From positions 1-21,759 of the forward strand of contig CAZGJX010000076.1 of NCBI GenBank assembly GCA_964525635.1: a DNA stretch of 21,759 bases, in the 5' to 3' direction. The notes beneath the pieces were generated by a model that saw only the letters and a list, made by a program, of their open reading frames with translations, did not search any database and was not told where the DNA came from. Positions within the stretch are counted from its first letter, which is position 1, and the number at the start of each line of letters is the position of its first letter. The position numbers were made by a program, and so were the translations under genes. Shown here piece by piece: positions 171 through 21,659 of this stretch. The stretch comes from an uncultured archaeon (lineage in GTDB: Archaea > Asgardarchaeota > Lokiarchaeia > Sigyniarchaeales > SOKP01).

Positions 171-1323
171 TAGCGCATTAAATTTATAAGCTTTTTTTGT
201 GTCATTTTTTTTATATCACACACGTATTACATCCTTACAAAAAGCTCGTTCACGCAGTTATATTCATGAAAAAGCTTTCTATCACGAGAAAAACGCCCGA
301 TCATGACGAATTAGTCGAGCTCTACAAGGTCGAGAAGAACTATCGCCTGAAAGAACGATATCATGCCCTTGTCTTGATGCATGAATTGAAAAGCTGCTAT
401 AAGGTTGCAAAAATAATGAAACGCTCGGACGTGACAATCCAATCTTGGGTAAAATCGTTTAACACGGGAGGTTTACCAATGCTTGCTCCAAAGGTCTCTC
501 CAGGACGACCATCGAGATTATCGGTGGAACAAAAAGAAGAATTAAAAAAAGACGTGTTAACGCACCCTCGAGAATTAGGCTACGATTTCAGCAACTGGGA
601 AGGTAAGCACGTTTCGAAACACGTCAAGAACAAGTTTGGCATTCTTTTAAAAGTGCGGCAATGTCAATATCTCCTTCAAGACCTTGGTTTTACCCTGCAA
701 AGACCGAGATATGCCTTTCCCAAGGCAAGTTGCGATGATCAAGAACGATTCGTCCAAGAGTTCAAAAAAAGCTCTACAATCTCGACCCAAACGATTTAAT
801 CCTTTTTCTTGACGAGGCAAGCATCCAATTTGCTTCGACCATCACGCGAATGTGGTCGCTCAAGGGGCAGCAACCAAAAATATATACTCATGGCAGTCGC
901 AAGCGTCAGTCGCTCATTAGTGCCGTCGATCCAATAGGAGGCAACTTGTACGTGGCCTTGACGGACGGCTTAAAAACGGAACAATTTCAGCATTTCTTAG
1001 AAGACCTTCTTGCAAGGTATCCGCATTCTAAAAAACTTGTCATCGTCTTGGATAATGCCAGGGTTCATCACGCCAAGCGGTTAACACCTTTTTTAGAGTG
1101 CAATGAATATCGACTTGAATTATTGTATTTACCACCTTATTCTCCTGACCTCAATCCAATGGAATGGTGTTGGAAGTTCTTGCGTAAAGAAGTCACTTAT
1201 AACACTTTTTTTGTTGATTTCAAGTGCCTCAAGCGCGAGATCGTGAAATTCGTGCTAAAACATAAACGATCATCTTCTGAAATTCAATCTCGATGCAATT
1301 ATACTAAACTATATAATGCGTTA
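171..1323 (+). mobile_element. IS630-family insertion sequence (~1.15 kb)
   Basis: Imperfect terminal inverted repeats TAGCGCATTA (171-180) and TAATGCGTTA (1314-1323), flanked by TA at 169-170 and 1324-1325 (IS630/Tc1-type target duplication). Encodes HTH plus DDE transposase and is visibly more GC-rich than its flanks. Confidence 0.9.
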
Positions 1324-1326
1324 TAA
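266..1326 (+). CDS. IS630-family transposase, two ORFs joined by a -1 frameshift at the A7 run (764-770)
   Basis: ORF1 (likely ATG 266, MKKLSIT) has the winged-HTH region with GRPSRLS and LGFTLQRPR. The -1 frame from the A7 run reads KLYNLDPNDLILFLDEASIQF into ORF 850-1326, supplying FLDEA, VLDNARVHH and LPPYSPDLNPME catalytic motifs. Confidence 0.9.
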
Positions 1327-4643: not shown

Positions 4644-4772
4644 ATGACTCGTGGCGGACAATGGTCTTGTCCCTCCTGTAATTCTTATGATGTTGAAGTA
4701 TATTCAAGAGTTATGGGTTATTATAGTGAAATGAATCAATATAATCCAGGAAAAAGAGCTGAATGGGAAACT
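4644..4772 (+). pseudogene. nrdD: C-terminal fragment of class III (anaerobic) ribonucleotide reductase
   Basis: CPSC Zn-ribbon half, glycyl-radical loop VYSRVMGYY and YNPGKRAEW. Only ~43 codons, after which the frame runs out-of-frame through DM13 sequence. Confidence 0.7.
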
Positions 4773-4810
4773 GGGGTAATGGAACAGTTCAAATTATCCC
4801 GTTGGAAAAT
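4771..4810 (+). repeat. 40-bp direct repeat, copy 2
   Basis: ctggggtaatggaacagttcaaattatcccgttggaaaat; 38/40 identical to 2893-2932. Confidence 0.95.
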
Positions 4811-5062
4811 CTTGATGTTAAAGTTCAATTTTTTGAAGTTAAGATTGCAAATGAACCTGATTTGTATGTATATTTATCAAATAAATCCTCATTTACTGGA
4901 ATTTCTGATATTCCTGGTGATTTCATTAATTTAGGAAGATTACCATATAATCAGGGAAATTTTAGTTTTGGAATTTCATTAAGTATAAATCTTGAAGATG
5001 TTAACTCTGTTCTAATTTGGTGTCTATAGTTTTCTGTATTATTTACTTATGCTATATTAAGC
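4772..5062 (+). pseudogene. 3' part of a DM13-domain protein gene, with premature TAG
   Basis: GTVQII...(E)PDLYVYLS...NLGRL...GN...SVLIWC is the DM13 pattern. After TAG at 5027-5029 the frame continues FSVLFTYAIL, the usual DM13 tail. Confidence 0.75.
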
Positions 5063-5291: not shown

Positions 5292-6749
5292 ATGGAACAT
5301 AAAAAAGATATGAAAAAAAAATTAACTTCACAAGGAGGTGCTCCTGTATCAGATAATCAAAATTCATTATCTGCAGGTGAACGGGGACCCTTATTAATGC
5401 AAGATGTGCATTTATTTGAGAAAATGGCACATTTCAATAGAGAAAGAATACCAGAAAGGGTAGTTCACGCTAAAGGTGCTGGAGCATATGGTACTTTTAC
5501 AGTAACTCATGATATCACAAAATATACTAAAGCAAAAATATTTTCAGAAATTGGTAAAAAAACCAAACTTGTAGTTCGATTTTCAACTGTAGCAGGTGAA
5601 AGAGGTTCTGCAGATACAGTTAGAGATGTTCGAGGTTTCGCTATTAAGTTTTATACAGAAGAAGGTAATTGGGATTTAGTAGGAAATAATACACCCGTAT
5701 TTTTTATAAGAGATCCATTAAAATTTAGTGATTTTATTCATACACAAAAACGCATGCCACAAACAAATCTTAGATCTCAAATAATGTGGTGGGATTTCTG
5801 GTCACTTGTTCCAGAAGCTTTACACCAAGTCACAATTTTATTCTCTGATCGTGGTATACCTAGAGGATTTCCACATATGAATGGATATGGTAGTCATACT
5901 TATAGTTTTCTTAATGCAAATGATGAGCGTTTCTGGGTAAAATTTCATTTCAAAACTTTACAAGGTATAAAAAATTTCATGCAAGCTGAGGCAGATGAAC
6001 TTGCTGGTAAAGATCCAGACTGGGCAACGCGAGATCTTTTTGAGAGTATTGAAAGAGGTGATTATCCAAAGTGGGAATTATCTATACAAATCATGCCAGA
6101 GAAAGAAGCTGAATCATACAGATGGAATCCATTTGATTTAACCAAAGTTTGGCCCCATGGAGATTATCCTCTTATAAAAGTAGGGATAATGGAACTTAAT
6201 AAAAATCCTGAAAATTATTTTGCTGAAGTGGAACAGGCAGCTTTTGATCCATCTAATAGAATTCCAGGTATTTCTTTTTCACCAGATAAAATGTTACAAG
6301 CAAGGACTTTTTCTTATGCCGATGCACATAGATATAGACTAGGAGTTAATTACCAAAGCTTACCTGTTAATAAACCAAAAACAGGTAATGTTCACAACTA
6401 CCACCGGGATGGATCAATGAGATTTGATGGAAATAGTGGCCCTGCAGTAAATTATGAACCAAATAGTTTTGGCGGTCCTACAGAAGATCCTGCTTTTAAA
6501 GAACCTCCCTTAAAAATCTCAGGAGATGCTGATAGTTATGATCAACCCACAACGGACGATGATTTTGTCCAACCAGGCAATCTCTATAGATTATTACCCT
6601 CTGATGAACAAGATCGTCTTATTGAGAATCTTGTTAATAGTTTAATAACCATTCCCAAAAACATTCAGGAGCGAATGGTAAACCATTTCTTAAAAGCAGA
6701 TAAGACATGGGGAGAGAGAGTAGCAAAGAAATTAGATGTAAATATTTAA
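5292..6749 (+). CDS. katA: Monofunctional small-subunit haem catalase
   Basis: Distal His motif [35 protein letters not shown], and proximal Tyr motif [14 protein letters not shown]; 485 aa. Alternative start at 5310. Confidence 0.97.
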
Positions 6750-9222: not shown

Positions 9223-11358
9223 ATGAGTGAAAATAAATATGAATTTAAAGCAGAAATTAAAAAATTGCTAGATATTCTTAGTAAATCTCTTTATCAACAT
9301 AAAGAAGTATTTTTAAGAGAGTTAATAAGTAATTCGGTTGATGCACTTAAGAAAGTTCATTTTATATCTCTAACAGACAAAGATATTCAAGATTTTAATG
9401 AAGAATTGAAAATTGAAATTATTACTGATTCAATTAACAACACTATTACTGTTAGAGATACAGGAATTGGTATGAATAAAGATGAATTAATTAGCAACTT
9501 AGGAACAATTGCAGGAAGTGGTTCTCAAAAGTTCTTGGAGCAATTAAATCAATCTCAACAAATAGATTCAAAAAAGCTTGATTTGGATGTTATTGGTCAA
9601 TTTGGAATTGGATTCTATTCGATTTTCATGGTTGCAGGTAAAGTAAATGTTATTTCTAGATCCTATAAAAAAGAAGAAGAAGCTTATCAATGGGAATCTG
9701 ATGGAACAGGAGAATTCACAATAACTAAAAATGATAAACAAAAACGTGGAACAGATGTGATATTATATATAAATGATGAGGATAAAGAATACTTGGATAA
9801 GTTTAAAGTTGAATCTATAATTAAGAAATATTCAAATTATGTATCCTTTCCAATTTATGTTTCTGAAATAAAAAAAGAAGAGAAAAAGGAAGAGAAAAAG
9901 GAAAAGAAAAAGGAAGAGAAAAAGGAAGAGAAAAAGGAAAAGAAAAAGGAAGAGAAAAAGGAAGAGAAAAAGGATGAAAAAGAAGCAGAAGAAGAGATAG
10001 AACCTAAACCTGTGAATGAATTAAATCCTTTATGGAAACGAGATAAAAATGAGATAAAGGATGATGATTATAAAAATTTCTATCATTTTATTTCTAATAG
10101 ATATGATGAATATACTCATATGATTAATTATAAAGTTGATGGAAGCGTACAGTTTCACACTATTCTCTTTATACCAGAATCAGATCCTCTCACGTTTTTA
10201 AGACCAGATGATGAATATGGATTATCTCTTTATTCTAAAAGTGTTATGATTATGAAAAATTGTAGTGAACTTATTCCAAAATGGATGAGATTCATTAAAG
10301 GTGTTGTAAATTCAGATGATATACCATTAAATATCAGTAGAGAAACGATACAAACAAATCGAGTAATGATGAAGATTGAAAAATTGTTGATTAAAAGAAT
10401 CCTTCGAGAGTTTGAAGAAATTGGAGAAAAGGACCTTGATAAATTTAAGAAGATATGGAGCAATTTTGGTATATATTTTAAGGAGGGAATGATTTCAGAT
10501 CCCTTTAGAGCAGATAAGCTCTTGAATTATCTTAGATTTAAAACCTCTAAAACCACTGATGATGAATATAGAAGCTTGGAAGATTATATAAAAGATTTTC
10601 AAGAGGATCAAAATGAGATCTACTATCTAGTAGGAGAAAATATTAGTACGATGAGACAATCTCCACACTTAGGTTATTATAAGGAAAATAACTTAGAAGT
10701 TATTTTATTTGATGAACCAATTGATAATTTTTTAATGATGAATATCCATGAGTATAAAAAATCTGTTGGAGAAGGCGATTCTGCCGAAATAATAACTCAT
10801 AAATTTTCACCTGTAGATGTAACTGAGCCTGTTAAAGATAAGGAGAAAGACAAAGAAGATGAAAAAGAAAAAAAAGAAAAATCAGATATAAAAATTCCTG
10901 AGAATATTAAAAAATTTTTGGAACATGTAAAGTCAATATTAGGAGAAAAAATATTAGATACAAAAATCTCTGATAGGCTTTATGATAATCCTTGTCGACT
11001 GGCTAATCCTACAGGAGGAATGACTTCAAGTATGCAAAGAGCTATGAGATATTGGACGAAGACGGAGTCAGGAAAAGAATTTCAAGCACCCCGTAAAATA
11101 TTAGAATTTAATCAAGACCATCCATTAATTAATGGACTTATAGAACTTTTTACCTCAAATCCTGAAGATAGTAAAATAAAACCAGTTATTAACCAATTGT
11201 TTGAAAATTGTCTCTTAGCAGAAGGAGATCTCCCCAATCCATCATTAATGGTACCTCGAATTAATCAATTAATTGAGATGTTGATTACTGATAAAATAGA
11301 ATTTAGTGAATCAAAAGATAATTCAGATGATACTAAAAAAGAGATTAAAGAGAGTTAG
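9223..11358 (+). CDS. htpG: Molecular chaperone HtpG (Hsp90)
   Basis: GHKL motifs FLRELISNSVDA, DTGIGM, NLGTIAGSG, IGQFGIGFYS, and middle-domain DIPLNISRETIQ. Confidence 0.97.
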   Translation: MSENKYEFKAEIKKLLDILSKSLYQHKEVFLRELISNSVDALKKVHFISLTDKDIQDFNEELKIEIITDSINNTITVRDTGIGMNKDELISNLGTIAGSGSQKFLEQLNQSQQIDSKKLDLDVIGQFGIGFYSIFMVAGKVNVISRSYKKEEEAYQWESDGTGEFTITKNDKQKRGTDVILYINDEDKEYLDKFKVESIIKKYSNYVSFPIYVSEIKKEEKKEEKKEKKKEEKKEEKKEKKKEEKKEEKKDEKEAEEEIEPKPVNELNPLWKRDKNEIKDDDYKNFYHFISNRYDEYTHMINYKVDGSVQFHTILFIPESDPLTFLRPDDEYGLSLYSKSVMIMKNCSELIPKWMRFIKGVVNSDDIPLNISRETIQTNRVMMKIEKLLIKRILREFEEIGEKDLDKFKKIWSNFGIYFKEGMISDPFRADKLLNYLRFKTSKTTDDEYRSLEDYIKDFQEDQNEIYYLVGENISTMRQSPHLGYYKENNLEVILFDEPIDNFLMMNIHEYKKSVGEGDSAEIITHKFSPVDVTEPVKDKEKDKEDEKEKKEKSDIKIPENIKKFLEHVKSILGEKILDTKISDRLYDNPCRLANPTGGMTSSMQRAMRYWTKTESGKEFQAPRKILEFNQDHPLINGLIELFTSNPEDSKIKPVINQLFENCLLAEGDLPNPSLMVPRINQLIEMLITDKIEFSESKDNSDDTKKEIKES
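9877..9972 (+). repeat. In-frame tandem repeat of 8 x 12 bp (GAAGAGAAAAAG / GAAAAGAAAAAG) within htpG
   Basis: Unit order A-A-B-A-A-B-A-A (36-bp higher-order period), purine-only on the + strand, encoding EEKK/EKKK. Confidence 0.95.
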
Positions 11359-11542: not shown

Positions 11543-12718
11543 TTAAAAACTAATTCCAGCCTGAGCGGACATTAACAGAAGTTCCGTCATTGTACCATTA
11601 TAATCATTTTCTATTTTGAAATAATTGTTTTTTCGAGTAAAAGGAATACTATAAATAAATTTATGGTTTTCAGTAGCAAATGGAACTTTTTCAACAAATT
11701 CCTTCATTAAAGGATGAAATTCAACTGGAATATTCTCTTTGGTCGGACATACCATACCGAAACATATACGTTCTATTACTTCAGATTCCCAGTTAAAAGT
11801 AAAATATATAGTCCTAGCGTCACAACATTTTTCTAATACTTCAGATGAATTTATTTCAAAGTTTAAATTTTCGAGGATATTTTTGTACAATTCTAGGCTT
11901 GATGTTTTTGGTTCTTTAACCATAAAGTAGATGTTCATAGATTTATGTAAAAAGTCTAATGCGATTAGAGAAAATTTGGTTAATCCAAATTTCTTAAAAA
12001 ATTTTGTATAATTTACAATACTCTTAGGTATATTTGACATAGAATATAAATTTTTGATTGATGTTGGAGCGATTAGAGACCATATTTTAGCTAATCCTTT
12101 TCTTACATCTAAATCTACCCCATAGCCTAGCACATTAAATTTCTCTTTGATTTCGGATAACATTTTATGCAAAGGGTGCCCGTTTAGATTGATTAAATCA
12201 TTATTTATTGCAATGACATAAGGATCTGGATTATGTGGGTTCATAAGTTCCACATATCGTACAGAAATATCTCTTAAATCTTTATGAAGGGTGGTTGTTC
12301 TAATCGAGAGCGATGAACCTGTGAAAAAAGTTTTGTAAGCGTTAATTACCTTCCAAATTTTTTTCTCATTACATTTTACTCCTGTGAAATTACTGATTTT
12401 TTTAAGATCTGAGACTAAGATATCCAAGTCTATATTGTGTTGGAAGCCCCCTTTGACCAATACTAAGTATTTCTCATAATCTACACCCAATTTTTTCAAA
12501 TCATCTATCATAGTCGGTTGAAACGCAGGCGGAGTGACTTCAAGCAGAGCAACAATTAAGTCAACTTCTTTAATTTGTATTCCCCCCCTTTCAGTACATC
12601 TTTTAATTGTTTTATCATAAAGCGCACTTGATATAATTGGTCTAACAGATTCAGGCATATTTAGAACTACATTATTGTATAAACTTTCAACTTCTGGGTT
12701 CCATTCCAATTTTATCAT
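11543..12718 (-). CDS. ABBA-type aromatic prenyltransferase (NphB/CloQ-like) with N-terminal DUF2621/PCP_red-like module, copy 2
   Basis: SIRTTT, DPY..A, GHP, YGVDLDV..GLAKIW, LDF..KS.NIYF, IYFTFNWES..IERICF and YFKIENDY match PT-barrel motifs of the NphB/CloQ family. Start overlaps the upstream stop (ATGA). Confidence 0.82.
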   Translation of the reverse strand: MIKLEWNPEVESLYNNVVLNMPESVRPIISSALYDKTIKRCTERGGIQIKEVDLIVALLEVTPPAFQPTMIDDLKKLGVDYEKYLVLVKGGFQHNIDLDILVSDLKKISNFTGVKCNEKKIWKVINAYKTFFTGSSLSIRTTTLHKDLRDISVRYVELMNPHNPDPYVIAINNDLINLNGHPLHKMLSEIKEKFNVLGYGVDLDVRKGLAKIWSLIAPTSIKNLYSMSNIPKSIVNYTKFFKKFGLTKFSLIALDFLHKSMNIYFMVKEPKTSSLELYKNILENLNFEINSSEVLEKCCDARTIYFTFNWESEVIERICFGMVCPTKENIPVEFHPLMKEFVEKVPFATENHKFIYSIPFTRKNNYFKIENDYNGTMTELLLMSAQAGISF

Positions 12719-14115
12719 CTCTTTTTATAATTTATTATTTTTCCATCTACATGTTTATGGTCGTTTTCATACCAACAGTATGGAAATGAACCTAAGATAT
12801 CACCTGTAAGTGCTTCAGTAAGAACTCTACAACCTCCACCACATAATTCAAGATGAGAACAATCTGCACATTTCCCGTGACGCTTTCGATCTCGGATGTC
12901 TTTATAGATCTGGGAATTTAATACATCTATAAAATCGTCAGTTAAAGCATTTCCGAGGGTCGTTGCTGTAGGATACCCGGTGGGATATATAGTCCCATCT
13001 ACTTCAATACCCATCATTGCTTTACAAGCTTGGCACCCAACACCCCAATCAATGGTGGCCAATTCCTCATCATTTTTTGGTACTTCCATAAAAGGTGTCA
13101 TTTCATAAATCTCAAACACAGGAATATTGCCCGCTTTTCCATTTCTGATCGCATTAATAGCTCGATTGTACTTGAATTCGTATAATCTCTTATACTGTTC
13201 CATATTAAGGCCAATTTCAGACCAGTATTCATCCGCTCGGCTACCCTTTTGTTTAACTACAGGTCTTAGAAAAGGAGCAGCACCCCATTTTTCTGCTAAA
13301 GCTTTCATTTCTTCTAATTCATCAATATTTTGTCTCATAATAGTCATGGAAGCACATACAAATAAGCCATACTTATGACAGGTTTTTATTGCTTTTTCCG
13401 CATAGGATAATGAATTTGGAAATCCACGTATTTTATCGTTCTTTTTTGGATCAGCACTATCAAAACTAACAAATACATGACTCATCTCGTAATCTTTGCA
13501 CATTTTCGCAAATTCTTCTGTAAATTTAACTCCATTGGTTATTATCGCATGATTATAATCTTTTTCGCAACAATATTTCATAATTTCTCCAATATCTTTA
13601 CGTAGAGTAGGCTCCCCTCCAAACCATATATAAGTTCCATGTCTCCCCTGCTTTTGTAGACTTGTTTCAAGATTTTCAATAATTTGGCACCATTTCTTTA
13701 CTGAAAGTTCGTCTCGAGGTTTGCGATCTGTTGCACAATGAATACAGTTCATATTGCATTTATCGGTAAGATACATAGCGAAATGTATCACACCAGGACG
13801 GAAGCCCTCAGCAAACTTTTCCCAAGAAACATTTAATCGGTCTCGATATTTTTTAATATTGATATATCGTTCCATATCCACTCCAAGAGATTCTAACTCC
13901 TCGACGATTTTCGATTTAAATGCTTCAGGAACAACATCAAAAGTCCCTAATATAAAATCCGATAAATTCACAATCGAACTTTGTCGGTCAATGCATCGTT
14001 TTTCAACTGCTTTAATTGTTGTTGGTTTTATTATTGAATGAAGGTTTTCTGGGAATTTTTCTAAAAGTTTTTGAAAGGTGTCTTCCGCTTCTTGATTCCA
14101 TTCTTTTTTTCTCAT
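12715..14115 (-). CDS. Radical SAM/SPASM protein with N-terminal DUF2621/PCP_red-like module, copy 2
   Basis: CNMNCIHC (CxxxCxxC), FGGEPTLR, ITNG, VSFDS; SPASM GCQAC...CADC...CGGGCR...PYC. Confidence 0.92.
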   Translation of the reverse strand: MRKKEWNQEAEDTFQKLLEKFPENLHSIIKPTTIKAVEKRCIDRQSSIVNLSDFILGTFDVVPEAFKSKIVEELESLGVDMERYINIKKYRDRLNVSWEKFAEGFRPGVIHFAMYLTDKCNMNCIHCATDRKPRDELSVKKWCQIIENLETSLQKQGRHGTYIWFGGEPTLRKDIGEIMKYCCEKDYNHAIITNGVKFTEEFAKMCKDYEMSHVFVSFDSADPKKNDKIRGFPNSLSYAEKAIKTCHKYGLFVCASMTIMRQNIDELEEMKALAEKWGAAPFLRPVVKQKGSRADEYWSEIGLNMEQYKRLYEFKYNRAINAIRNGKAGNIPVFEIYEMTPFMEVPKNDEELATIDWGVGCQACKAMMGIEVDGTIYPTGYPTATTLGNALTDDFIDVLNSQIYKDIRDRKRHGKCADCSHLELCGGGCRVLTEALTGDILGSFPYCWYENDHKHVDGKIINYKKR

Positions 14116-14187
14116 TTTATTTCTAACTCATTTTTTTTACTTTATTGTTTATTTTTTTACCTTTTTAGGTCGAAAGTATTTCTTCCG

Positions 14188-14227
14188 TCTTGCCCTTATT
14201 CTTGCGTGAAGGACAGGAAAGACAAGA
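14188..14227 (-). other. Putative intergenic stem-loop in the operon transcript
   Basis: On the transcribed strand UCCUGUCCUU (or the adjacent UCUUGUCUUU) pairs with AAGGGCAAGA around a loop containing C-GCAA-G. GC-richer patch in an AT-rich spacer. Confidence 0.4.
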
Positions 14228-14254
14228 AAAAAATTTTAATATTTGTAGATTTTT

Positions 14255-16261
14255 TTAATTTCCCATTGCATTTTTGTGAGCTTTTGCATATAGTGTGATT
14301 AGGGGTATACACTCCATCAGTTTTTCTGTATCTCCCTCCACAGCATATTTTCCACTCATAGTTGCTTTAATTGGATCCTCTTCTCCTAATAATATCTTTT
14401 GAATTGTGTCAAAATCTGTTTTATGAATCATCTTTGGAGCGTCCAAATCTGAACATTTACCCATCCCCCATTCTATTTTGGAATCAATAAAAGCTTGCCA
14501 GAAACTCATCTTTGAATTGTTTGTAACTTGATATTCAATTACTAAAGGAGCAATAGAAGTAATCAATGTTTGTAATTCCGATAGATCACTAAGTGAATTC
14601 ATAAATTGAGAGATGTAATCTTTCCAATCACCTTCATCTTTCAGATCTACTGAATCTTGAGTAGTGCTATTAGCAGTCTCTTCCAATATTTCTGAACTAT
14701 AAGGTTGTGCTTTTATAGTCTCAACTTCATCTTCACTCAAAAATTTTTTCAAATCAATTTCATTCTCAATCATTAGATCAAGTAAGTCATGTTGAAATTG
14801 TGGTGGCACTAATTTAATTAGAATCGCAATGACAAGATCCTTCGTTACTTCATCCATCTTTTTTCGCTCAGCAGTTCTTTCTGAGATATTTCTAATAGCT
14901 TTAGAAGCAGATTTTTGCATATTTTCAGGAATTAGTTCTAATGTCTCTTCAAAAAATTTTAGGGCTTCGGGTGTCCATGAAATTCCATAGATAGTCCCCT
15001 CTTTTGTGTCTTCTATTGGGCTGGTGATTGTTCTTTCATCTTTCGGTAAAAATTGTTGACCTGCGTTAAAATAATTATACAAATAAGCAGAATATTTTTT
15101 ATATGTTTCCGTTTTCTCTTTAGAAGGTAAGAAATAGGCCTTATTTACCCATTCATAGCAATACTTACATTTAACACCGCAATTTTCTATACATCTTGAA
15201 CCTTGAAATGGAAGATTTTCAATAAAACCATCCAATTTATCACATCTTAATTGTGCATCAAAATCCGGAATCCCAATTTGTAAATCATCATCACTTTGAT
15301 AACCTCCTATTTCTTCTTGAAGGGATGTATATTCAGGAAATTGACTTCCAGCTAGTTCCAAGGGATTTGTTTGAAAATTATATCCATTTAACATATTCCC
15401 AAGATTAGAATCATAGAATCTTTTTGCATATGCTTTTAAAGCATGAATTATCCAAGGTGTATGATATCTCCTTCCAGATATTTTATAATAGTTAATTCCT
15501 GTTTTTAGATAATAATCGATATCAGAAGGTTGAATCCATTTCGCCATCATAATCTGCTCTGGATTGAACGCTTTGGCACTTTGACATGCAATAACTGACC
15601 AATCATTATAGTATCCTTTTAATACATGATGCTCTTGACTTGCATGTGAAGTTTCAGAATAATGGAAAAATCTAAAAGGACACTCATTTACACAAGCATC
15701 ATTAAGGAGGATTTCCAAATCACAATCTAGTTCCTCTCTGAATTTTTTAAGCAATGGAAAATTTCGATTAACCATTACTGACAAGTTTATTATTCCTTCT
15801 TTCCCAATAATTTCTTGCCAATCATAACCCATAGTAAGTGTAGTTACTTCAGCAATTAAGGAAACTTTTACCTTGATATTAGGATGATAATACCGTACAA
15901 ATCTCGCTAAATAAGGATCTACAATCGTGATATATTCAACGCCCAGATCATCTAACCAATCCAATTCTTTAAGAGCTTTGTCTTGCGCTTTTGAATTAAA
16001 CTTGCTGAAGCCAAGACACTTTCCATTCCATAGCCATGTAAATCCCACACCTATATCATGGACTCTATTAATATAATCTTCCATCTCAGAGTAATCTTTT
16101 CTTGGCATTAAGAAAAAGGGACGCCCAGAGCCTGTAAAGCCAAGATCTCTTGTACCATAAAAATCATTTACAACTTTGAGTAAATCATGATTTTTTTCTA
16201 TCTCATCTAATAAATCTTTCTTCCAATTACATGGAACTGATATACGTAATGAATTAACCAT
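14255..16261 (-). CDS. U32-family Fe-S protein fused to an internal DUF2621/PCP_red-like module and a C-terminal SCP2 domain
   Basis: U32-like core (FYG...GSGR, LDWLDDLGV..ITIVDPYL, NRNF, LLNDACVNECPF..H, YKISGR) and Cys cluster CIENCGVKCKYC. Helical module at aa ~429-507. SCP2-type tail TDFDTIQKILLGEEDPIKATMSGKYAVEGD. Confidence 0.8.
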   Translation of the reverse strand: MVNSLRISVPCNWKKDLLDEIEKNHDLLKVVNDFYGTRDLGFTGSGRPFFLMPRKDYSEMEDYINRVHDIGVGFTWLWNGKCLGFSKFNSKAQDKALKELDWLDDLGVEYITIVDPYLARFVRYYHPNIKVKVSLIAEVTTLTMGYDWQEIIGKEGIINLSVMVNRNFPLLKKFREELDCDLEILLNDACVNECPFRFFHYSETSHASQEHHVLKGYYNDWSVIACQSAKAFNPEQIMMAKWIQPSDIDYYLKTGINYYKISGRRYHTPWIIHALKAYAKRFYDSNLGNMLNGYNFQTNPLELAGSQFPEYTSLQEEIGGYQSDDDLQIGIPDFDAQLRCDKLDGFIENLPFQGSRCIENCGVKCKYCYEWVNKAYFLPSKEKTETYKKYSAYLYNYFNAGQQFLPKDERTITSPIEDTKEGTIYGISWTPEALKFFEETLELIPENMQKSASKAIRNISERTAERKKMDEVTKDLVIAILIKLVPPQFQHDLLDLMIENEIDLKKFLSEDEVETIKAQPYSSEILEETANSTTQDSVDLKDEGDWKDYISQFMNSLSDLSELQTLITSIAPLVIEYQVTNNSKMSFWQAFIDSKIEWGMGKCSDLDAPKMIHKTDFDTIQKILLGEEDPIKATMSGKYAVEGDTEKLMECIPLITLYAKAHKNAMGN

Positions 16262-17405
16262 TTATTGCACCTCGTTCAATTTTTTGTAATTTTTTTTCTA
16301 TTACCGATAGTACTTCCTTTTTCACTGATACATTCGCTTCATTACATTTTTTTATATAATCCTTGCAAAATTCATTCATTTCATCCTCCTCTGGATAAAA
16401 ATGTTCATAAGGAAAATTTTCAACAAATTCCTTAATTACATAATCTGGAAGTGAAATCATTGACTCTTCGATTGTCTTTTCTAAGCCATAATTTCCATAT
16501 GGATTTGGTATATTAAGGAATTTACAGAAATCACCTTCAAACGATTTGTTCATATAAGAATTAAGAATATCTAATGTCTTTTCTTTAGAAAACCCATATG
16601 TAAAAAGTAGAAAAGTATCATATCCCATATTCTCATATTTTTCAATGTTAAATGGAGATATCCATCCTGCTTTTAGAATCCGTTCTGGTTCTTCTAAACG
16701 CTTTTTCCAACATTCTAATAAAGGAAAATCAAATGCATTTTCAACATCAGATATCTCAATCTGATTAGAAGATACAGGAGAATCCATAGTTCTATGACTT
16801 TGCATATTATGGTGATCAAACCAATAAATGCATCCCCAATTACATCCCAAATTAAGGGGCAATATGTAGCTTGTATCGCTAATTTTTTGATTTTCTTCTT
16901 GAATTTTTGTGAGATTATTCATTACATAGGAATATCTTAAGATATCCGGGTGTAAGATAATCGATTGAGATCCAATGTTGAAATAGAGTTTAGCACGATT
17001 TGTTGATGTTACAAATTGGGCATAGGATAAGAAAATGTTTAATGACGGATAATTTTTCTTTATAAATGCTAAGATATTAGGCGAAGAAACTAGTACATTT
17101 TCAAAGCCTAATTCAATCATATCCTCAAGAAATTTTCGATATGCCCTAAAATGATCAACATAAGATTCTAGATTTCCTTGGCATGAAGAATCAATGCCAA
17201 AAATAGGAGTTAATCCCTTATCTTGCACAAATTTAGTATAGTTCTCAAATTCTTCACGATCTGGTAACTTTTCCGGCAAAAAAATTGACCCATTTCCTAT
17301 GGGATTATGTGGCGTATGTAATATAATGTGCGTCACAGGAAGTTCCTTTTTTGTAATAGCGGAAATTAATTCCCTATTATAATCTCCTTCAATTATAAAT
17401 TTCAT
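16254..17405 (-). CDS. Divergent U32-family protein
   Basis: Colinear with the neighbouring U32 core (IGNGS, VLVSSPNIL, LNLGCNWGC-x5-H-x5-H, AGWISP) but lacks KISGR. Stop overlaps the next start by 8 bp. Confidence 0.72.
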   Translation of the reverse strand: MKFIIEGDYNRELISAITKKELPVTHIILHTPHNPIGNGSIFLPEKLPDREEFENYTKFVQDKGLTPIFGIDSSCQGNLESYVDHFRAYRKFLEDMIELGFENVLVSSPNILAFIKKNYPSLNIFLSYAQFVTSTNRAKLYFNIGSQSIILHPDILRYSYVMNNLTKIQEENQKISDTSYILPLNLGCNWGCIYWFDHHNMQSHRTMDSPVSSNQIEISDVENAFDFPLLECWKKRLEEPERILKAGWISPFNIEKYENMGYDTFLLFTYGFSKEKTLDILNSYMNKSFEGDFCKFLNIPNPYGNYGLEKTIEESMISLPDYVIKEFVENFPYEHFYPEEDEMNEFCKDYIKKCNEANVSVKKEVLSVIEKKLQKIERGAING

Positions 17406-17498
17406 TATTTAAATCATCTTTGTGGTTTTTTTTTTTCAATTATTTAAACACCTCATTTTTTTTTTATTTTTTAGTTAATTTTTAAAAAAAAGTTCATT

Positions 17499-18674
17499 TT
17501 ATAGATCTAATCCTCCTTCTGCCCCCATTTTTAAAATTTCAATCATCGTTCCTGTATAATCGTTTTCTACTTTGAACCAGTTTTCGTTGGGAGAAAATGT
17601 TAAACTATAAATAAAAGTCCGCTTGTCAGTAGCGAAAGGAGCTTTCTCGACAAAAGTTTTCATTAATGGATGAAAATGTATAGGGACTTGATCTTGTCCT
17701 TCAGGACAGAGAACTCCAAAGCAAACTCGCTCTATTTTATCAGATTCCCAATTAAAAGTGTAATAGATAGTAGTGGCCTGACGACACCGTTCCATTACTT
17801 CAGGAGGACCCACTTTATAATTAAGATCTTTAAGCATAGCTTCACACTTTTCTCGTGTCACCTTTCCCGGTTTTACAATGAAATATATATTCACCGTCTT
17901 ATGACAAAAATCGAGAGCAAATAAGCAAAAATCAGATAAACCATGTTTTTTAAAATAATCTTTCAGCGTTAATATGCTCTTCGGAAACGTTTCCATTGAA
18001 TAGACGCCTTCGACAGGACAAGGTGTGATAAAATTCCAGAGTTTTGTTAATCCTACTCTAACATCCAAATCTACGCCATGACCCATAATTTCAAACTTAT
18101 CGTAGATCTCATAGAACATTTTATGGAGAGGGTGTCCATTTTTTTCAAGTAAACCCTCATTAATAGCTGTAATATAGGGATCAGGATCATGTTTTACCAT
18201 CAACTCAACATATCTTATTGAAACATCTCTTTCTTCTTTTGGTTTAGTAGTAGTTCTAATTGAGATTGAAGAACCGGAGAAAAAAGTTTTATAGGCATTT
18301 AGAACCTTCCAGATTGCTTCTTCATTACATTTTACTCCAGTGATGTCTCCAATTTTATTTAAATCCTCAACGGTTTGATTTAGATCTACATTATTTTTAA
18401 ATCCACTTTTAACATAAACCATGTATTTTAAATAATCAATACCTAATGATTTTATATCTTCAATCATTCCAGGCTGTATCGCTGGGGGAGTTACTTCAAA
18501 TATAGCTACTACTAGATCTCTCTCTGCAATAGTTTTTCCTTTTCGATCCTCGCATTTTTTTTCTGCTGTGTTAAACAGAACTGGTCCAATAATAGGTCTA
18601 ACATTAACGGGCATTTTCAGAACCATATTTTCATAAAGTTGTCTAACTTCTGGTTGCCATTCCATTTTTTTCAC
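17499..18674 (-). CDS. ABBA-type aromatic prenyltransferase (NphB/CloQ-like) with N-terminal DUF2621/PCP_red-like module, copy 1
   Basis: SIRTTTKP..RDVSIRY, DPY..A..EGL, GHP, GVDLDV..GLTKLW, LDF..KTVNIYF, IYYTFNWES..IERVCF, WFKVENDY. Same 391-aa length as its paralogue. GTG start (or ATG at 18665). Confidence 0.83.
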   Translation of the reverse strand: MKKMEWQPEVRQLYENMVLKMPVNVRPIIGPVLFNTAEKKCEDRKGKTIAERDLVVAIFEVTPPAIQPGMIEDIKSLGIDYLKYMVYVKSGFKNNVDLNQTVEDLNKIGDITGVKCNEEAIWKVLNAYKTFFSGSSISIRTTTKPKEERDVSIRYVELMVKHDPDPYITAINEGLLEKNGHPLHKMFYEIYDKFEIMGHGVDLDVRVGLTKLWNFITPCPVEGVYSMETFPKSILTLKDYFKKHGLSDFCLFALDFCHKTVNIYFIVKPGKVTREKCEAMLKDLNYKVGPPEVMERCRQATTIYYTFNWESDKIERVCFGVLCPEGQDQVPIHFHPLMKTFVEKAPFATDKRTFIYSLTFSPNENWFKVENDYTGTMIEILKMGAEGGLDL

Positions 18675-18690
18675 TTTTATAATTTTATTT

Positions 18691-20106
18691 TTATTTTTTT
18701 GATTGAATTAATTTTGTTTCCTTCTCTGGAGATAGATAGTCTTCATAGTCATGATCATTCTCATGCCAACAATATGGAAACGATGCAAAAAAGTCACCCG
18801 TTTCACATTCGGCATGCACCCTACATCCTCCACCACATAATTCAAGATGATGACAAGTAGCACATTTTCCTGTTCGCTTTCTATCTCTGATATCTTTAAA
18901 CAGTTGAGAATTCATTATTTCTTCAAAATTCTGTTCTAAGACATTTCCAAGGATTAGTTCAGAAGGATAATCACATGGAAAAAAATCTCCATTGACATCA
19001 ACACCTGAGACCAAACGACATGCTTGACATCCAACGCCCCATTCTAAAGCTGTAAGTTCTTCATCATTTATAGGATATTCCATAAACGGTACCATATCAA
19101 ATGTATTAGCTCTATTTAGAGTAGTAGCTTTTCCTTCTCTTATGGCTTCAACCACGTTTTTATACTTAAATTCATAGAATTCTTTATATTGTTCAGGAGT
19201 TAATCCAATTTCATCCCAATTATTTTTAGCATTTCTTTGCTTAATTACGGCTCTAAAAAATGGGATGGCGCCCCAACTTTCGATTTTTTCTTTTAGATCC
19301 TCAAGTTCATCAATGTTTATTCTCATTATTGTTGGTGTGCATATGACAAAATGGCCATACTTTACAGCTAATTTAACTGCTTTCTCTGCAGTCTCATATG
19401 CATTTGGCACACCTCTTATCTTTGCAGCTCTCTCAGGGCGAGTACTATCAATACTAATAAAAATATGGCTCATCTTGACCTCTGCTAATAATTTTGCAAG
19501 ATCATCGGTAAACATTATACCATTTGTCGCTATTGCTTGAAGATATTCTTTTTTATAACAATAATCGATTAAATCCTTAAGATCTTTTCGAAGAGTAGGC
19601 TCTCCTCCAAACCATATATAGCAACCTTTTCTTCCTTGCTTATTCAATGTTTGCTCGATATTTTCCACAATCTGAATCCAATGCTCTGTAGAGAGTTCTG
19701 GACGCGCATCATGAACCTCAGCAGCACAATGCATACATTTTTGATTACAGCGATCAGTAAGATACATTGTTATATGATAAACATTAGGTAAAAATGCTTC
19801 CCCTATTTCATCCCAAGATTTATAATACTTTTGTCTTATCTCTGAAAGTTGGACATAACGTTTAGCATTAATTCCTAATTTATGTAATGTACTCACTAGA
19901 GTAGCTTTTAAAGACTCTGGTGTAATTTTTACTAATGCTGTTATCAAATCGTCTTTGCTTACATAACCAGAATTCCTTAATCTCGCATTCTCCTCTGCAT
20001 TATCATGTAAGAGAGGCTTTACTGCGGAGCGGAATCCTTCGGGAACTTGATTTGTAAGAGTTACAAATAGTTCATTTACTTCACTTTTCCATTCCAAATT
20101 TTTCAT
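18691..20106 (-). CDS. Radical SAM/SPASM protein with N-terminal DUF2621/PCP_red-like module, copy 1
   Basis: CNQKCMHC, FGGEPTLR, ATNG, ISIDS; SPASM GCQAC...GDFFPC...CATC...CGGGCR...PYC. Confidence 0.93.
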   Translation of the reverse strand: MKNLEWKSEVNELFVTLTNQVPEGFRSAVKPLLHDNAEENARLRNSGYVSKDDLITALVKITPESLKATLVSTLHKLGINAKRYVQLSEIRQKYYKSWDEIGEAFLPNVYHITMYLTDRCNQKCMHCAAEVHDARPELSTEHWIQIVENIEQTLNKQGRKGCYIWFGGEPTLRKDLKDLIDYCYKKEYLQAIATNGIMFTDDLAKLLAEVKMSHIFISIDSTRPERAAKIRGVPNAYETAEKAVKLAVKYGHFVICTPTIMRINIDELEDLKEKIESWGAIPFFRAVIKQRNAKNNWDEIGLTPEQYKEFYEFKYKNVVEAIREGKATTLNRANTFDMVPFMEYPINDEELTALEWGVGCQACRLVSGVDVNGDFFPCDYPSELILGNVLEQNFEEIMNSQLFKDIRDRKRTGKCATCHHLELCGGGCRVHAECETGDFFASFPYCWHENDHDYEDYLSPEKETKLIQSKK

Positions 20107-20196: not shown

Positions 20197-20943
20197 TTAA
20201 CAAATTAGAACCCCTATTTTGCTTATATATATAGAAGAATTTTTAAAAAGAGTATTTAGGAAATTTTGTAACCATTCTAAATTTCTAGAATAATTAGTTA
20301 AAAAAGAGAAGAAGCAAGAACATAGAGGAAAGAAATATGGCAAAAAATAATAATGTTTTTTATAAAAAATAAGAAAAAAATAGAAAATTTCATTTTGAAA
20401 GAGTTTATACCGGAATTTTTCCTCACCTATAGTTCCCTTAAATTCCTCATAATTTATGCTATTAAAGTTTTCATTATTCTTTTGGTTTAAATGATGAAAT
20501 TCAAATAAATACCCAATATTATCATTTAAATCAAAATTATTAGAATTATTATCAAGATTTTTAAAATTATCATAAGAGCAAGGGAAATAAATATCATATT
20601 CATATAAATATCCTTCAATATAACTTTTTTTTATATATTGATAAAATAATCTTTCAAAATAACTAGCTAGATTAATAAGAATAAAAAAATCAATCACTTG
20701 ACCAAGGCTTAAATAAATTTTAGCATTTTTTTCTGTAATAAACCAAAAAATATTGATATCTGAAAACCATGGAACAAAAATTGAACTATTGGATGAAATA
20801 TAATTTTTTAATAAACTATCAAAATCTGTAATATTTTGTATGAAGAGATATAAAAATGAGATTGGTAGAGATAATGTAAGGAATACCAAAATTATAATAA
20901 CTAAAATCTTTAAATTTTTGGATTGTTTTTTATATTTGTCCAT
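20197..20943 (-). CDS. Hypothetical membrane protein
   Basis: 248-codon ORF in very AT-rich DNA with an N-terminal TM helix and an aromatic-rich C-terminal segment; no recognisable motif. Confidence 0.5.
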   Translation of the reverse strand: MDKYKKQSKNLKILVIIILVFLTLSLPISFLYLFIQNITDFDSLLKNYISSNSSIFVPWFSDINIFWFITEKNAKIYLSLGQVIDFFILINLASYFERLFYQYIKKSYIEGYLYEYDIYFPCSYDNFKNLDNNSNNFDLNDNIGYLFEFHHLNQKNNENFNSINYEEFKGTIGEEKFRYKLFQNEIFYFFLIFYKKHYYFLPYFFPLCSCFFSFLTNYSRNLEWLQNFLNTLFKNSSIYISKIGVLIC

Positions 20944-21125: not shown

Positions 21126-21659
21126 TTAAGATTTAACTTTATGTTCTTTAAATTTCATATAGATAGAAGTTTTAGAAATATTATATTTATAATCTCTAGG
21201 AAATATTTTTATAATTTCTCTTATAAGATTATCAATTTTTTGTTTGGTTATCTCGGGGTGGGTTTGATTTAAATCAGGATCTAATTTGTGTAAATATACA
21301 GAAACTTCTATTTTAGAATCATTGTTGATCAATAAATTAACAATTTTCTGTAAAAAATCAAGAGATGGGGCATATTTTTTTTTATCTTGTATATCAATTA
21401 CAAATAAAATTTTTTTCGTATTAACCAAATAACTATAGAAATTCTTTAAATATTCATTTATGTATTCTTTTTGACCACCAAACTCCCAAACAATATATTC
21501 TTGATCAATTGCTTGATACTTAATAAAATCAATATGAATAGTAGGTTTTATTTCAGAAAAAGAGGATAAATTACGGAATCCTTGAAAATATTTTAAAATT
21601 GAGGTCTTTCCACTATTACTGAGTCCCAATAGTAACATTCTAGAATAAGGTTTAGACAT
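21126..21659 (-). CDS. Ras-superfamily small GTPase (Arf/Rag-like, Asgard type)
   Basis: G1 GLSNSGKTS, G2 KPT, G3 WEFGGQ, ILFVID, G4 HKLD, G5 KTSI. Confidence 0.9.
   Translation of the reverse strand: MSKPYSRMLLLGLSNSGKTSILKYFQGFRNLSSFSEIKPTIHIDFIKYQAIDQEYIVWEFGGQKEYINEYLKNFYSYLVNTKKILFVIDIQDKKKYAPSLDFLQKIVNLLINNDSKIEVSVYLHKLDPDLNQTHPEITKQKIDNLIREIIKIFPRDYKYNISKTSIYMKFKEHKVKS

Follow-up and report, generated by a model that had tools for sequence, protein, structure and literature searches.

An accessory gene module combining ABBA prenyltransferases, radical SAM/SPASM enzymes and a U32 protein pair in a Lokiarchaeia genome

Background

What could be made by six co-oriented genes that bring together two ABBA prenyltransferases, two radical S-adenosylmethionine (SAM) enzymes and a pair of U32 proteins, one of them carrying an SCP2 domain, in an uncultured Asgard archaeon? 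The genes lie in a DNA stretch of 21,759 nucleotides (assembly GCA_964525635.1, contig CAZGJX010000076.1; called the window here) from a genome of the Lokiarchaeia (Sigyniarchaeales; SOKP01). An earlier note, made from the sequence alone, had proposed that the operon makes a prenylated, anaerobically hydroxylated aromatic lipid, such as a membrane electron carrier, with ABBA enzymes used instead of UbiA. This interpretation was supported in part: the enzyme families, their co-localisation and a prenylated lipid made without O2 were retained, whereas the electron carrier was weakened and the replacement of UbiA was not supported. The best explanation, with a probability of about 0.5, was considered to be an accessory pathway that yields an aromatic lipid with prenyl and hydroxyl groups and does not depend on O2.

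Layout and recurrence of the operon

All six open reading frames (ORFs) were intact. The host genome belongs to the Promethearchaeota and the closest homologues were also found there, in agreement with the Asgard host suspected earlier. In transcription order the genes are as follows (rSAM, radical SAM protein; PT, prenyltransferase; D, a shared domain described below):

18691-20106, minus strand: rSAM1, 471 aa, D domain, radical SAM and SPASM
17499-18674, minus strand: PT1, 391 aa from a GTG start (388 aa from an in-frame ATG at 18665), D domain and ABBA prenyltransferase
16254-17405, minus strand: U32a, 383 aa, U32-family Fe-S protein with neither D nor SCP2
14255-16261, minus strand: U32b, 668 aa, U32 barrel, CX3CX3CX2C motif, D domain and SCP2
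12715-14115, minus strand: rSAM2, 466 aa, D domain, radical SAM and SPASM
11543-12718, minus strand: PT2, 391 aa, D domain and second ABBA prenyltransferase

The spacings between these genes are 16, 93, -8, 139 and -4 bp, and the order, overlaps and gaps described earlier were thus confirmed by the ORF coordinates. When the proteins were compared with Pfam, PTase_Orf2, Radical_SAM with SPASM (in both rSAM proteins), Peptidase_U32 and SCP2 were all matched, as the earlier note had assigned them. The same gene set was found again in more than 20 genomes, so it is not a chance arrangement, and the co-localisation is conserved. Three features had been overlooked, namely the D domain, a seventh gene (20197-20943) and a paralogous cluster on contig C15 of the same genome.

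The GC content at third codon positions placed all six genes between the 92nd and 96th percentile of the genome, which, together with the patchy spread described below, is compatible with an acquired accessory pathway. The best DNA matches to the operon came from 2019 salt-marsh metagenomes, possibly of one campaign, and none of the listed matches was an RNA dataset. Promoter and terminator scans, in which a bacterial consensus was applied to an archaeal host, performed no better than on shuffled sequence.

ABBA prenyltransferases

PT1 and PT2, which are 57 % identical, matched PTase_Orf2 (PF11468) with E-values of 1e-54 and 1.5e-48 (186 and 166 bits; cut-off 22). The solved relatives of PT1 were FamD1/AmbP3, EpzP and AmbP1 (1e-35 to 1e-38), and a profile search of PDB relatives reached 5e-54. 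These matches support the earlier view that the two 391-aa proteins are predicted ABBA barrels. Nine residues (R140, R154, K211, N262, Y264, R316, K368, E370 and Y373) were invariant in 24/24 Asgard prenyltransferases. The diphosphate-binding residues of AmbP1 are K117, N168, Y170, R223, K278 and R46 (PMC6632223), and they aligned with K211, N262, Y264, R316, K368 and R140, respectively. In addition, E370 was equivalent, when mapped via the K-x-E motif, to E281 of CloQ, the phenol-binding base (PMC5371340). Judged by sequence, the catalytic residues of PT1 and PT2 are therefore intact, and the CloQ-type glutamate and the two arginines of the Mg-independent type are kept, as in the CloQ/NphB family (AmbP1, AmbP3/FamD1, EpzP, NphB and CloQ).

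The Asgard enzymes differ from this family in the fused D domain, in their archaeal host and in their partners, which are Fe-S enzymes and not oxygenases or halogenases. No archaeal ABBA prenyltransferase was reported in the literature searched. The pocket also differs. At positions 250 and 266 (putative equivalents of CloQ R160 and R176, located by counting from the N-x-Y motif) no arginine was found in 24 Asgard members; binding of 4-hydroxyphenylpyruvate in the manner of CloQ thus seems unlikely, because the carboxylate-binding arginines appear to be absent. An Arg/Glu pair as in CloQ coexists with Gly at the position where CloQ (Y233) and AmbP1 (Y227) have Tyr. In CloQ this pair limits the donor to C5. 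Moreover, PT1 and PT2 carry T302/Y304/S357, as do most bacterial relatives, while the common Asgard type has H/N/G, so the acceptor or the regiochemistry probably differs between the two clusters.

U32 pair and SCP2 domain

The Peptidase_U32 matches (7e-5 and 2e-5) were just above the Pfam cut-off, and the SCP2 lipid-binding domain of U32b (14303-14575, minus strand; aa 563-653) was matched at 1.3e-4. These marginal calls hold because the U32b profile matched the solved U32 protein Mk0906 (4e-14) and the AlphaFold model of U32b matched both Mk0906 (2.6e-9) and the SCP2 domain of UbiJ (1e-4, Foldseek). In many other loci SCP2 is a separate gene, and elsewhere it is fused to U32, rSAM or prenyltransferase proteins.

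U32a was always located directly upstream of U32b, and the two genes overlap by 8 bp. Four cysteines of U32a (C75, C188, C192 and C232; invariant in 10/10) aligned with those of U32b (C82, C190, C194 and C226), and they are near-invariant in each protein; U32b has the extra CX3CX3CX2C motif at 357-368. The sequences are consistent with a putative U32a/U32b heterodimer that holds one 4Fe-4S cluster in each subunit and carries out prephenate-dependent hydroxylation. An adjacent four-cysteine U32 pair with SCP2, tied to a prenyltransferase step, is also the arrangement of UbiT, UbiU and UbiV (PMC6747719, PMC10990095). However, the motifs of UbiU (CX6CX16CX38C) and UbiV (CXnCX12CX3C) (PMC6747719) differ from the C-Xn-C-X3-C-X31/39-C spacing in the window and include no second motif. 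The UbiU/UbiV-type pair of the earlier note was thus retained as to the U32 domain, the four-cysteine pair and a probably similar way of working, and not as to the cysteine motif. The operon differs further from UbiTUV, which is confined to proteobacteria, in its soluble ABBA enzymes (in place of UbiA), two SPASM enzymes and D domain.

Radical SAM/SPASM enzymes

The two rSAM proteins share 49 % identity and the CX3CX2C motif (C120, C124 and C127 in rSAM1). The SPASM domain of rSAM1 has eight auxiliary cysteines, invariant in 32/32 subfamily members. In the case of rSAM2 there are seven, as the equivalent of C378 is Thr, and this cysteine is missing in 24/28 members of its subfamily. The best NCBIfam matches of rSAM1 were NirJ, AhbC, AhbD and MftC, with about 115-131 bits against cut-offs of 265-650, and no cut-off was reached when the rSAM proteins were compared with the AhbC, AhbD, NirJ, MftC, PqqE and Tes equivalogs (Tes, 63 bits against 450). 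The archaeal lipid enzymes Tes, Gms, Grs, Gmm and Ted (10.1101/2025.10.20.683597, PMC13459092) share with them anoxic radical SAM chemistry on lipophilic substrates, and clusters of the operon type lie amid lipid genes; the similarity of the window rSAMs to Tes is, however, low. SCP2 is mentioned with lipid rSAMs in neither of these two papers, and the preprint also mentions no U32 protein or prenyltransferase.

A shared D domain

Five of the six operon proteins (all except U32a) carry a common domain of about 85 residues, here called D. It stands at the N-terminus of the two rSAMs and the two prenyltransferases and lies within U32b:

19843-20106, minus strand: D of rSAM1, DUF2621/PCP_red-like, about 85 aa
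18411-18674, minus strand: D of PT1, modelled at pLDDT 92, five helices
14729-14992, minus strand: D of U32b, aa 424-511
13852-14115, minus strand: D of rSAM2, DUF2621/PCP_red-like
12455-12718, minus strand: D of PT2, DUF2621/PCP_red-like

In the host genome D was found in exactly ten proteins, every one of them encoded in the window operon or its C15 paralogue. Pfam DUF2621 matched D below the cut-off (8e-4 to 0.05), and the likeness was seen in structure: D resembled DUF2621 clusters of the Atlas (TM 0.83-0.89) and the PCP_red NMR structures 2KRU and 2L09 (Z 6.0-6.8). AAA+ lid domains were also fold matches, with a best Z of 8.3 (BchI lid), a range that is common for small helical bundles. 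What sets D apart from DUF2621 and PCP_red is that it recurs on three mutually unrelated enzyme types of a single pathway, where it may occupy either end of a protein or stand alone. No match under E 0.18 was obtained when the D profile was compared with PDB sequences, and no paper on the function of D was found in the literature search.

Among 1.8 billion representatives, about half of the top D matches had at most 115 aa, and the longer ones mostly belonged to the U32, prenyltransferase, rSAM and SCP2 families seen in the module. Across loci D was N-terminal, C-terminal, doubled or encoded by a separate gene, which indicates that it behaves as a module of its own. In three loci, SCP2 came after a third rSAM-D subfamily (L045:5394-9836, L085:15948-20349 and L100); in L045, genes for a GlcD-like FAD protein and a CCG Fe-S protein, adjoining a PlsC-type acyltransferase, were also present.

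Distribution and gene order

Of 68 genomes in the family of the host, 17 carried the prenyltransferase, as did one genome from another family of the class; it was found in none of the other 231 genomes of the phylum that were sampled. Among 106 host-family genomes with at least 85 % completeness, 24 had the prenyltransferase, 23 the rSAM and 25 the U32. These genes tend to occur together, since 21 genomes had all three and only 27 had any of them. No prenyltransferase was found in three congeners (89-99 % complete). The module is therefore accessory and patchily distributed. Relatives were found in records of Bacillota, Acidobacteriota, Aminicenantes, Omnitrophota, Myxococcota and Thermoplasmata. 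The NCBI labels of several loci (Thorarchaeota, Hermodarchaeota and Deferrimicrobium) were at odds with GTDB, which places these loci in the family or class of the host, and were not used to define the range.

The common order of the module is a membrane gene, rSAM1, rSAM2, a B12-dependent rSAM (B12-rSAM), the prenyltransferase, then SCP2 or the U32 pair, and finally a U32-D gene. The order in the window (rSAM1, PT, U32a, U32b, rSAM2, with no B12-rSAM) was shared by two other genomes (L003 and L004), whose sequences clustered with it in trees (for the rSAMs, a quick tree) and which also carry a cluster of the common type (L041 and L076). The trailing PT2 was found only in the host genome and is missing from the other two.

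The host itself carries a larger paralogous cluster (G000:C15:5171-22992; L001) with three B12-rSAMs, U32-D, the membrane gene, rSAM1, rSAM2, two rSAM/SPASM-SCP2 fusions, an ABBA prenyltransferase, U32a and U32b-SCP2. As the window cluster lacks the B12-dependent methylase of the common version, differs from it in the prenyltransferase pockets and has one prenyltransferase more, its product is probably different from that of C15 or a doubly prenylated congener.

The membrane gene is represented in the window by the seventh gene:

20197-20943, minus strand: 248 aa; the N-terminal part (about 100 aa) is conserved and hydrophobic, with one or two membrane helices, whereas the tail diverges

No Pfam match and no known family were found for its product. 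In most Asgard module loci, two of them without a prenyltransferase, a homologue lies immediately 5' of the first rSAM or of such module genes as remain; no homologue was present in 7/8 loci that have the neighbouring B12-rSAM and no module. The gene thus belongs to the module, and its product is a candidate membrane anchor. Directly upstream, at 21126-21659, the window encodes a Gtr1/RagA-like small GTPase.

Gene neighbourhoods of relatives

Several relatives lie in an aromatic context. In the Bacillota, they adjoin type 1 isopentenyl diphosphate isomerase in three loci and 3-deoxy-D-arabino-heptulosonate 7-phosphate synthase in one, which indicates dimethylallyl diphosphate and a shikimate-derived ring in these loci. 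A D-fused ABBA prenyltransferase in a record labelled Proteobacteria (L047:8037-16154) is followed by a reductase-domain non-ribosomal peptide synthetase and p-aminobenzoate genes, and other prenyltransferase relatives adjoin methyltransferases and a resistance-nodulation-division pump. In clusters like those of type II polyketide synthases (L097:8001-16273 and L170:2381-18656), a free D gene, or D-fused HemN-like and U32 proteins, was found with B12-rSAMs. In L195:2722-8488 (B12-rSAM, D, U32-D, D, B12-rSAM, UbiA), UbiA takes the place of the ABBA prenyltransferase. The fusion of prenyltransferase and rSAM in one gene (L098) shows that these two steps are tied together. The neighbours of two free D genes examined were uninformative.

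The Asgard versions add SCP2 and lie amid lipid genes, with CDP-alcohol phosphotransferase, family 2 glycosyltransferase, LuxE-like ligase and sulfotransferase as common neighbours. A neighbouring B12-rSAM was present in 24/24 prenyltransferase-positive genomes and in 21/82 others, a difference that physical linkage explains in part; the copy that neighbours C15 may be a GDGT ring synthase or a relative of one. The best match of the module's B12-rSAM was the ladderane-cluster family TIGR04072 (271 bits; cut-off 360), and it is also BzaD-like. L194:5420-10850 contains luxE, luxC and a LuxC-D-rSAM/SPASM fusion. In the Dehalococcoidia (L116-L159), the nearest D-less U32 of the same subfamily adjoins an acyl-CoA ligase in 26 loci, often with genes resembling fabG, fabF, acpP, plsX and MaoC dehydratases; it is a candidate for an O2-independent step of fatty-acid oxygenation.

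Quinone, phenazine and lipid routes of the host

The host assembly was rated 100 % complete. The search for quinone-linked proteins comprised five membrane families (electron-transfer flavoprotein:quinone oxidoreductase and type II NADH dehydrogenase lay outside it). No complex I/Mrp antiporter subunit, NarI/HdrE cytochrome b, cytochrome bd or Sdh cytochrome b scored above the cut-off, and for the hydrogenase cytochrome b there was one sub-threshold match; controls were positive throughout. Controls were also positive for the futalosine family MqnA/MqnD (PF02621), of which no member was found in the host, and for MenB, of which only MenB-like proteins were found (at most 107 bits; cut-off 343). 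PhzA/B was matched neither in the host nor in the control genomes.

The genome carries chorismate synthase, chorismate mutase and two polyprenyl synthases. The geranylgeranylglyceryl phosphate (GGGP) synthase gene adjoins a UbiA-family gene, and the synthase (PcrB family) was found in 104/106 family genomes including the host. An ABBA enzyme as a replacement for GGGP synthase was ruled out by this distribution. Since the GGGP synthase and UbiA-family genes are kept, the ABBA enzymes add to the usual lipid route and do not replace it, contrary to the "instead of UbiA" of the earlier note.

What the module may make

The likeliest output remains, as the earlier note had suggested, a prenylated lipophilic compound formed without O2; the domain families, their co-localisation and the intact prenyltransferase and Fe-S motifs agree with it. 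We propose that PT1 and PT2 would move a prenyl group, independently of Mg, onto an electron-rich ring drawn from the pool of shikimate or aromatic amino acids, and that E370 would serve as the base. The rSAM1 and rSAM2 proteins would then perform radical steps on the prenylated intermediate (side-chain removal, oxidative decarboxylation or ring closure), and the U32a/U32b heterodimer would add hydroxyls with prephenate as the oxygen donor. SCP2 would hold the greasy intermediate, D domains would gather the enzymes (as a docking tag) or pass the intermediate on (as a carrier), and the seventh protein may tether the complex to the membrane. The product would be a meroterpenoid whose final place is the membrane, where it would act as a modifier, an antioxidant or a means of chemical defence. 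By analogy, the operon appears to work like UbiTUV joined to a meroterpenoid cluster. It matches no described cluster, and a literature search (with subscription papers outside it) found no described pathway with this gene set, as the earlier note had stated.

Several points weigh against this explanation. The operon contains no ring-forming enzyme and no dedicated prenyl synthase, and the presence of chorismate mutase says little, as it is near-universal (95/106 family genomes). Modules without a prenyltransferase exist (L176, L177 and L103). The cysteine spacing of the U32 subfamily departs from that of UbiU and UbiV, the Dehalococcoidia relatives adjoin fatty-acid genes, and direct hydroxylase activity in vitro is so far undemonstrated for U32 proteins (PMC10990095).

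The main rival is that the module modifies a membrane lipid, of either the isoprenoid ether or the acyl/alkyl kind; the rSAMs and U32s would act on an SCP2-held chain and the ABBA enzyme would optionally add a prenyl or aryl-prenyl group. This reading is kept alive by the neighbouring B12-rSAM with its ladderane-type best match, by the persistence of prenyltransferase-free modules and by the acyl-CoA ligase context in the Dehalococcoidia; the common lipid-gene neighbours and the LuxC-D-rSAM fusion beside LuxE point the same way. We consider it possible but doubtful, as the aromatic-type base is kept in the ABBA pocket, bacterial relatives adjoin shikimate, p-aminobenzoate and aromatic polyketide genes, the near-universal GGGP synthase leaves no ether-forming gap and the rSAMs score far below the Tes cut-off. 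A respiratory electron carrier (quinone or methanophenazine analogue) would fit the parallel of prenyltransferase, U32 pair, SCP2 and aromatic-type methylase with anaerobic ubiquinone synthesis (PMC6747719), and the host, with no futalosine enzyme and no MenB above the cut-off, has no known quinone route. However, four of the five quinone-linked families were not found in an assembly rated 100 % complete and the fifth was sub-threshold, and the prenyltransferase was not found in most family genomes or in the three congeners. Judged by these five families and the patchy distribution, a core respiratory carrier is unlikely, and this part of the earlier proposal was weakened.

The remaining two readings were considered very improbable. 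SPASM enzymes often mature peptides, and one small domain on several tailoring enzymes resembles the logic of ribosomally synthesised and post-translationally modified peptides (RiPPs), so that D could be a shared substrate-recognition element of peptide or protein modification, like the RiPP recognition element (RRE). The 16-139 bp gaps leave little room for a precursor, though, and no ORF of at least 50 aa recurred in the neighbourhood clustering; the fold matches of D were PCP_red and AAA+ lids, with RRE/PqqD not in the top 50, and SCP2 indicates a lipid. Tailoring of a tetrapyrrole or cofactor ring is suggested by the AhbC, AhbD and NirJ matches, by the likeness of D to the PCP_red domain of protochlorophyllide reductase and by the BzaD-like B12-rSAM. 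It is hardly compatible with scores that are all under half of the cut-offs, as is typical of generic SPASM proteins, and no tetrapyrrole gene recurs among the neighbours.

Other features of the window

197-1326: IS630-like transposase, split into helix-turn-helix and DDE_3 frames
1599-2612: protein with a weak Prok-RING match near the C-terminus
4644-5029: overlapping remnants of the C-terminus of NrdD (anaerobic ribonucleotide reductase) and of a DM13 domain
5292-6749: monofunctional catalase, in a presumed anaerobic Asgard host
9223-11358: HtpG/Hsp90 with a tandem Lys/Glu repeat in the charged linker

Implications

Beyond the proposed prenylated, hydroxylated aromatic lipid, we tentatively raise a broader idea, which we regard as doubtful: D may be a general metabolon tag for O2-free aromatic-tailoring enzymes (ABBA/UbiA, SPASM, U32 and methylases) in many microbes, and the Lokiarchaeia product may represent a class of membrane lipid that is new for archaea, an aromatic with polyprenyl and hydroxyl groups unseen in cultured archaea. 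Through the module, a role that is specific and open to testing can be assigned to a domain of unknown function, and D also flags related bacterial clusters. The module also allows an uncharacterised U32 subfamily to be tested on a small molecule, in a family whose direct hydroxylase activity is still unproven. Very little is known of the specialised lipids and secondary metabolites that Asgard archaea make, and the operon provides a compact, conserved and clonable pathway for one of them.

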